64,000 nucleotides of DNA, taken from an uncultured Dehalococcoidia bacterium (lineage in GTDB: Bacteria > Chloroflexota > Dehalococcoidia > Lucifugimonadales > UBA3495). The stretch is taken from positions 2,364 through 66,363 of the forward strand of contig CAZCZB010000010.1 of NCBI GenBank assembly GCA_964502995.1. Reading direction: 5' to 3'. The notes beneath the pieces are model-generated. The model was not told the DNA's origin. It saw only the letters and a program-made list of their open reading frames with translations, and did no database searches. Shown here piece after piece: positions 25,635 to 26,177 of the stretch. Every line of letters starts with the position of its first letter. Within the stretch, counting starts at the first letter, position 1. A program made the position numbers and the translations under genes.

Positions 25635-26177
25635 CTATCTGTCCACCAGGCACGCTATCACCTGGGGCGCGGCCGTGGCCGCCCGTTCCGATAGTTCGGC
25701 GTCGGTTAGCGTTACTATCGGGTGTTCGATGATTGCCAGTCCGTAATCGGGGTCGCCACGCATGCGGGACATGGCGTGGGCCTGGCTGATGAATGGCCGT
25801 GTCGTCAACACGGTGGACGGGATTCCCAGCAACTCGGTTTCCATTGCGTCGTGCACACTGCACGCGGTGCAGGACCCTCATTCAGCCGTGGCGTGTATTG
25901 CCACGTCGATGCTCTGGGCCGTCCGTTGCAGGTCCTCGATGCGAGCCGGCCATTGCCAGCCGCCCTTGTTGTGTTCCACCGTTCCCGCGATGTCGTACTG
26001 CTCGCCGATGATGGCGGCGATGCGACGCAGCAGATCCTCGGAGTGCGGCTTGTTGTTGGCAAACAGACCAATCACCTTGCCGTCCAGCGTCGTCGGACGC
26101 TGCGCCACCCGGGGTTGAGCCTGGGGCCCGTCGTCTCGCGGGTCGAGCGTAATGATTGAACCTCCCGCTGTTGTCAT
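25635..26177 (-). CDS. Candidate UGSC-family selenoprotein (in-frame TGA at 25878-25880 read as Sec)
   Basis: Track ORFs 25878..26210 and 25635..25856 are in the same frame and separated only by TGA. Read-through gives ...VAIHATAE-U-GSC-TACSVHDAMETELL. ATG 26177 has GGAGG 7 nt upstream. A hairpin lies 11 nt downstream of the UGA. Confidence 0.65.
25847..25866 (-). promoter_or_regulatory. Candidate bacterial SECIS hairpin for the UGSC gene
   Basis: Minus-strand CGCGUGCA-GUG-UGCACG(A)CG begins 11 nt 3' of the UGA. An overlapping alternative is CUGCAC-CGC-GUGCAG. Confidence 0.4.

Follow-up and report, generated by a model that had tools for sequence, protein, structure and literature searches.

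We are highly confident that positions 25635..26177 on the minus strand of the window (the whole 64-kb stretch of DNA that was analysed) make up a single gene, which encodes a UGSC-family selenoprotein of 180 residues, and that the gene's in-frame UGA is most likely read as selenocysteine (Sec) by means of a hairpin downstream. The gene starts at ATG 26177, 7 nt downstream of a Shine-Dalgarno-like GGAGG seen in the sequence (26185..26189, minus strand), and runs through 99 codons, the UGA (25878..25880, minus strand; putative Sec100), 80 further codons and a TAG stop (25635-25637). Two minus-strand ORFs, 25878..26210 and 25635..25856, lie in a common frame with a single TGA (25878-25880) between them, and the junction of the joined product reads DVAIHATAE-U-GSCTACSVHDAM or, with the codon written out, DVAIHATAE-[UGA]-GSCTACSVHDAMETE. 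The tryptic peptide predicted to span this junction is TAQSIDVAIHATAE-U-GSCTACSVHDAMETELLGIPSTVLTTR. An earlier, sequence-only reading of this DNA had proposed a hidden selenoprotein made of these two ORFs, split by the TGA alone, with this start codon, this GGAGG and this length. All of these details proved correct, and the proposal as a whole is supported by the family of the product, the conserved TGA, the Cys homologs, the fragmentary gene calls and a hairpin at SECIS distance. The joined frame is far beyond chance because the TGA is present in 141 of 141 relatives, the downstream frame extends for exactly 80 codons in nearly all of them, and one Pfam family continues across the junction.

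We searched the joined translation, with Cys in place of the UGA-encoded residue, against Pfam and NCBIfam. PF24696 (UGSC) matched it end to end with 144.7 bits (gathering score 25), residues 11-178 of the product aligning with positions 3-171 of the 172-position profile, and the match therefore crosses the UGA junction. The NCBIfam family that the sequence-only reading had named, "UGSC family (seleno)protein", exists as NF041046 and matched over profile positions 1-146 of 147 with 111.5 bits (E = 3.3e-32; Cys in place of Sec), which is below its curated equivalog cut-off of 125 bits. We therefore regard the product as a clear homolog and file it under the Pfam family PF24696, not as an NF041046 equivalog, from which it differs in this score. 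In other respects it is like the members of the UGSC family, which are characterised by a U/C-G-S-C motif and a size of ~170-180 aa: it has the U-G-S-C at the same column (HATAE-U-GSC, with U at residue 100 of 180), the same size and a full-length match to the Pfam profile. PMC2398784 ranks the "UGSC-containing protein" with the most numerous selenoprotein families in the GOS marine metagenomes, where 255 Sec forms and 21 Cys forms with a UxxC motif were counted, and a 2026 review of prokaryotic selenoproteomes lists the family under NF041046 with its function as uncharacterised (PMC13188914). The family as a whole and the clade of the window protein are alike in that Sec forms far outnumber Cys forms and in their aquatic, uncultured sources, while the window protein's Dehalococcoidia/SAR202 clade differs in a highly conserved extended motif, HATAE-U-GSCT[A/S]CSVHDAME.

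The relatives that we compared came from 80 loci of species-representative genomes (Dehalococcoidia, Chloroflexota or SAR202 MAGs; 64-93% identity) and from a further 60 metagenomic loci (48-87% identity). Among complete MAG chromosomes, the closest orthologs are on OZ241987.1 and OZ220699.1 (93% identity each) and OY843611.1 (92%). Every one of the 141 relatives examined (48-93% identity; from Dehalococcoidia/SAR202 MAGs and metagenomes) has TGA at the Sec column, and the genuine terminators of these UGSC genes are mostly TAG or TAA. In one set of 83 sequences that includes the window, 80 have exactly 80 open codons downstream of the TGA, and so do nearly all metagenomic loci that contain the whole gene. 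Measured against the window sequence, the median dN/dS is 0.106 over the 88 codons that precede the UGA and 0.063 over the 66 codons beyond the hairpin (+15 to +80). Stops interrupt one of the two alternative downstream frames in 128 of 128 sequences and the other in 108 of 128. These values show that the downstream half is translated and subject to strong purifying selection. In the rare full-length relatives (P0122, P0150, P0188, P0390-P0393, P0396 and P0412), the residue at the Sec column is Cys, within CGSC or CGAC. This applies to every full-length form with the motif, and D-C-G-S-C is among the sequences found there. The homologs thus carry either TGA or Cys at this column, as the selenoprotein reading had anticipated. 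Sec forms are vastly commoner than Cys forms among these relatives, in agreement with the counts in PMC2398784. A conserved UGA, an aligned Cys and purifying selection downstream make up the comparative criterion for a bacterial selenoprotein gene, and all three are found here.

Gene callers do break this gene up, as had been expected. The best 120 matches among 5.8 billion proteins are nearly all exactly 99 aa long, which means that they are cut at the UGA codon, and the start Met of the 99-aa homologs is that of the window gene (ATG 26177). An exhaustive search with an N-terminal profile returned 881 relatives, most of them 93-103 aa long, and one relative is recorded publicly as a 99-aa hypothetical protein (MBM3942393.1). 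For the split gene, callers give products of 99 aa and 69 aa, both of which match PF24696. We also scanned the window for in-frame TGAs in general. The raw scan gave 145 matches and was useless in DNA of 62% GC; after a filter for coding-like GC3/GC2, the sole credible in-frame TGA was the UGSC junction. The others lie antisense to genes already known, apart from the one at 5230, which is an ordinary stop with the next start behind it.

A consensus hairpin was obtained immediately 3' of the UGA by unguided RNAalifold folding of 105 distinct sequences (nt 7-41, numbered with the U of UGA as 1; 25840..25874, minus strand), and we regard it as the putative SECIS element of the gene. Its lower stem pairs nt 7-9 with 39-41 and nt 10-12 with 34-36, and an internal loop connects this stem to the apical stem-loop (25850..25864, minus strand), which extends from C17-G31 to A22-U26 and is closed by the loop G23-U24-G25 (25856-25858). 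The apical part is nearly invariant: in the 105 sequences, nt 17-32 hardly vary, including the third codon positions 18, 21, 24, 27 and 30. In the 79 distinct close sequences, codons +5 to +8 are each represented by a single codon, and +2, +3 and +9 almost so, against a codon entropy of 1-1.7 bits at the conserved residues that flank them; the third codon positions are frozen over ~30 nt 3' of the UGA. Across the alignment, 99.2% of the cells of the consensus hairpin are paired, and the frequent substitutions, C9U, C12U and A36G, are all wobble-compatible. There are two two-sided changes, including a compensatory G18A with C30U in locus L116, and 8-10 of 500 column shuffles reached the pairing and two-sided values of the hairpin; with so little variation in the element, covariation lends it only thin support. 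The hairpin has an energy of −12.1 kcal/mol and is the minimum free energy (MFE) structure of nt 1-48 (−14.6 kcal/mol). Its pair probabilities in the window sequence are 0.44-0.88 (0.88 for the apical stem), and taken alone it is no stabler than shuffled sequence (z = −0.32). Alternative folds are also compatible with the sequences of the relatives.

We compared this hairpin with the published descriptions of bacterial SECIS elements. The bSECIS model of PMC13188914 has a loop of 3-9 nt, an upper stem of 4-16 bp, a spacing of 16-37 nt between UGA and loop and an MFE of at most −7.5 kcal/mol, with G within the first two positions of the loop and frequently G or U after it. The window hairpin agrees with it on every count, with a GUG loop, a 6-bp upper stem, a spacing of 19 nt and −12.1 kcal/mol, and its G23 lies 20 nt after the UGA, matching the conserved loop G ~20 nt after the UGA in SelB-bound SECIS hairpins (PMC4605307). 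It further resembles the bSECIS consensus (PMC13188914, Fig. 2A) as a hairpin in the coding region directly 3' of the UGA with a small apical loop that starts with G-U. It differs from the bSECIS prototypes in that its loop is just 3 nt long, or 5 nt with the A22-U26 pair open, and the lower stem begins only 3 nt after the UGA. The characterised prototypes are the SECIS elements of the E. coli formate dehydrogenases, and the sequence of the window hairpin is unrelated to them. Rfam (release 15) gave no match to the element at gathering scores, and only noise at E up to 10 on 25760-25920.

The sequence-only reading had drawn a slightly different hairpin, CGCGUGCA-GUG-UGCACG(A)CG, starting 11 nt after the UGA (nt 15-34, 25866..25847), and had argued that its spacing and G/U-containing loop fit a bacterial SECIS. 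The argument from spacing and loop holds, and the drawn hairpin can form, with its upper six pairs conserved. However, its two bottom pairs are not conserved, since 16 of the 105 sequences cannot form 15-34 and 23 cannot form 16-33, and the conserved lower stem is instead formed by nt 7-12 with 34-41. A competing fold that had also been suggested, CUGCAC-CGC-GUGCAG (nt 9-14 with 18-23), is compatible with the sequences but has an ensemble probability of ~0 (0.00), shows no covariation signal and would place its loop only 11 nt after the UGA. We also considered a UGCAC/GUGCA fold, the single-sequence MFE structure of a longer stretch; it is compatible as well, with no covariation signal and a probability of ≤0.11. 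As a separate observation, the divergent Sec-form relative at L121 (665-736; UGSCTSCCMHDTVSLETLG) is the only sequence with an altered apical loop, in which nt 22 is changed from A to U and nt 25 from G to A, so that the A22-U26 pair is opened and the loop is changed.

From this evolutionary pattern we infer Sec insertion and SelB binding, which would proceed as follows. The ribosome would meet the UGA at codon 100 while the mRNA just 3' of it is folded into the hairpin of nt 7-41. By analogy with characterised bacterial SECIS elements, the hairpin, with its apical loop G23-U24-G25 ~20 nt past the UGA, would bind the elongation factor SelB, and SelB would deliver Sec-tRNA(Sec) to the UGA. Selenocysteine would thus be inserted and 80 further codons translated.

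We looked for the Sec machinery around the gene. Among the 33 ORFs of the 64-kb window searched against Pfam, there is no selA, selB or selD, only housekeeping genes (complex I, enolase, GAPDH, DnaB/DnaC-like proteins, RecJ, RecA, RNase Y and TRAP transporters), and no tRNA-Sec was found in the window, which has no tRNA at all. The fetched flanks likewise yielded no selA, selB, selD or tRNA-Sec. Two neighbours are about as large as SelB (614 aa) and SelA (433 aa), but the first is a B12-binding radical SAM protein and the second a ketoacyl synthase. The absence of Sec machinery from the window and flanks would suit a UGA that is read through as Trp, Cys or Gly, by a near-cognate or suppressor tRNA or by a lineage-wide reassignment, with the hairpin as a mere stimulator, but we consider such a mechanism highly improbable. 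UGA terminates 15 of the 35 ordinary genes in the window and is their commonest stop, which argues against a genome-wide reassignment. The residue aligned with the UGA in the non-UGA forms is Cys within a CxxC-type motif, and an exchange of Sec and Cys at one column of such a motif is a classic pair. The hairpin has the features of a bSECIS throughout, including a G-U with which its loop begins, 20 nt after the UGA. Moreover, the family is curated as a selenoprotein family (NF041046; PMC2398784 and PMC13188914), and tRNA-Sec genes have been reported in Chloroflexi (PMC5389517).

The frozen nucleotides could also be due to some different element that overlaps the gene here, for instance an antisense transcript, an attenuator or a site for protein binding, with the hairpin being incidental, and the single-sequence fold that is no stabler than shuffles, the sparse covariation and the lack of an Rfam match would all be in keeping with this. 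We rate it as even less probable than read-through by another amino acid, for the constraint starts right at the 3' side of the UGA and ends ~40 nt further on, as for a bacterial SECIS, the loop has the place and the bases that the published SECIS model calls for, and a conserved in-frame UGA that is read through requires such an element.

To describe the protein, we used an AlphaFold2 model of the Cys-form relative P0122, a proxy 45% identical to the window protein, with the window fragments and 99-aa relatives as rows of the alignment. The model is confident (pLDDT 89.1) and shows a parallel beta-alpha-beta, flavodoxin-like domain, in which the Cys/Sec site lies where strand beta-3 ends and helix alpha-3 begins. 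Its matches in the PDB are generic flavodoxin-like domains only (TIR, receiver-like, PTS-IIB and flavodoxin-type) with TM scores of 0.4-0.5; no thioredoxin fold was found among the top 50 structural matches, and no PDB relative of the UGSC protein was found by sequence. The model is evidence that the UGSC product has a flavodoxin-like alpha/beta fold. PMC2398784 suggested a Trx-like fold for UGSC proteins; with a flavodoxin-like model of a 45%-identical proxy and no thioredoxin-fold match in the PDB, this guess is not borne out. The notion that the locus is a pseudogene or two small genes, in which a nonsense mutation split a Cys-form ancestor and a 99-aa piece (perhaps also one of 73 aa from GTG 25856) is made, draws on the callers' 99-aa and 69-aa products, both matching PF24696, and on the lack of Sec machinery in the window, but it is the least probable of all and is ruled out, in our judgement, by the conserved UGA, the fixed length, the purifying selection, the Cys forms and the lack of reassignment taken together: the TGA is kept in 141 of 141 relatives down to 48% identity, the downstream part keeps to 80 codons with a dN/dS of 0.063, the junction lies inside one undivided Pfam domain, the predicted P0122 model is one compact domain with the junction in its core, and the putative GTG restart falls within the frozen hairpin.

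For the single 180-residue selenoprotein, the placement of the motif gives a clue to its chemistry. Redox-active UxxC/CxxC pairs usually have their Sec or Cys at the start of a helix just after a beta-strand, so the location of U-G-S-C-T-A-C at a helix N-terminus fits a selenol/thiol redox centre. Because the model is that of a proxy and resembles only generic folds, the redox function is taken from the motif and its position, and on this basis the UGSC product is most likely a selenol/thiol oxidoreductase, in which Sec100 would cycle through a selenenylsulfide with Cys103. The protein would then be like the UxxC/CxxC redox selenoproteins (Trx-like, Prx-like and PrdB-type; PMC2398784, Table 2) in having Sec at the N-terminus of a post-strand helix and Cys homologs, and unlike them in its predicted fold, which is flavodoxin-like (parallel beta-alpha-beta) and not that of thioredoxin.

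Directly upstream of the UGSC gene, on the same strand, lies an uncharacterised gene for a protein of ~341 aa (26281..27306, minus strand). Its ORF runs up to TTG 27351 (26281..27351), and the homologs support ATG 27306 as the start. The protein has no sequence match in Pfam, NCBIfam or the PDB, and its family has at least 4,859 members, none of them named. Of 142 Sec-form loci, 135 have this gene, hereafter the partner, next to UGSC, also when the remaining neighbours (the GFO/IDH/MocA oxidoreductase or DnaC-like genes) are not the same, and it adjoins UGSC in all three Cys-form loci examined, with 37-44% identity and once on the opposite side. Of the seven loci that lack it, L035, L045 and L052 (Dehalococcoidia) have an intact Sec-form UGSC gene and a full 3-kb upstream flank and look like real exceptions, and in at least two of the remaining four the contig ends near the UGSC gene. 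UGSC and the partner are a conserved two-gene module. It occurs widely among uncultured Dehalococcoidia/SAR202, marine ones and others, in both gene orders and with both Sec and Cys forms. No mention of this near-constant pairing was found in the available portions of PMC2398784 and PMC13188914.

The partner has invariant residues, including Cys82, His105 and His173, and the motifs DGLPVVPPT, HASSTSTNG and MDNSTFGHPGK. Its model has a pLDDT of 79.8, and the Foldseek resemblances of this model to class I fumarate hydratase and IRG1/PrpD-like proteins (TM 0.2-0.3) are too weak for use. The two proteins are probably linked physically or functionally, and the UGSC protein would probably work together with the ~340-aa partner. 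We tentatively suggest, giving it somewhat less than an even chance, that the pair constitutes an undescribed two-component selenoenzyme, in which a small flavodoxin-like Sec/Cys redox subunit serves a larger catalytic or substrate-binding subunit containing Cys82, His105 and His173. In the GOS data, an "Unknown_1" domain was found fused to UGSC (PMC2398784), and the partner may be this domain. A different arrangement is seen in P0412 (L146 4001-4849), a Cys-form UGSC protein with a ~100-aa C-terminal extension that contains a CxxC motif (AACRSC); a partner homolog lies upstream of it, and genes for a nitroreductase and a 2-hydroxyacid dehydrogenase lie downstream. This extension might be a fusion of the kind reported in the GOS paper.

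Several features of the surrounding DNA were noted as well. A consensus scan found no sigma-70 promoter or intrinsic terminator around the UGSC-partner pair. Between the convergent UGSC gene (stop 25635) and the gene of the GFO/IDH/MocA oxidoreductase (stop 25558) there is a perfect 11-bp inverted repeat, GTAGGGGCGAA-TGATTA-TTCGCCCCTAC (25582-25609), with GTTTTG next to it on the plus strand, and this repeat may be a bidirectional terminator, though the consensus scan did not call it. On the other side of the pair, a 538-aa protein has two IstB/DnaC-like AAA+ stretches, looks like a helicase loader duplicated in tandem, and adjoins DnaB (27352-28968 and 29459-30844, both minus strand), and the order DnaB, DnaB_2-like, double DnaC-like protein, partner and UGSC is repeated in the related 3-Mb contigs L001 and L002. 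A 1,612-aa membrane protein (19163-24001, plus strand) has counterparts in L001 and L002 with PMT_2 and DUF2298 domains, and contains low-complexity Pro-rich repeats, with DAPFSEEWHATPPT present twice. The 614-aa B12-binding radical SAM protein mentioned above overlaps the start of a beta-ketoacyl synthase (33894-36999, plus strand), and a second ketoacyl synthase lies 8 kb beyond the first (45352-46689, plus strand). The window also contains a full-length bacterial large signal recognition particle RNA (41463-41724, minus strand; Rfam RF01854, 136 bits) and a TRAP transporter cluster of DctM, DctQ and DctP, after which comes an 879-aa protein in which DctP-type solute-binding stretches occur twice (56112-62907, minus strand).

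The UGSC family is already described in the marine metagenome studies of 2005-2008 and is curated in Pfam and NCBIfam. Because both the family and the standard bacterial recoding mechanism were known, the selenoprotein call is correct but ordinary and of low novelty, and, with the Sec/Cys dichotomy and the recoding of UGSC already in the literature, Pfam and NCBIfam, the gain for biology from this part is small. The annotation point nevertheless stands, since relatives are public as 99-aa hypothetical proteins (such as MBM3942393.1): the gene is real, and standard callers turn it into a 99-aa fragment and a leftover, or into a pseudogene. Recognising it restores the complete protein and marks this uncultured Dehalococcoidia bacterium as a selenium user. 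What is new is a defined, comparatively supported candidate SECIS hairpin for the Dehalococcoidia/SAR202 UGSC clade and model-based evidence for a flavodoxin-like rather than a thioredoxin-like UGSC fold. The most useful new lead is the linked partner gene, which offers a functional handle on one of the most abundant environmental selenoprotein families.
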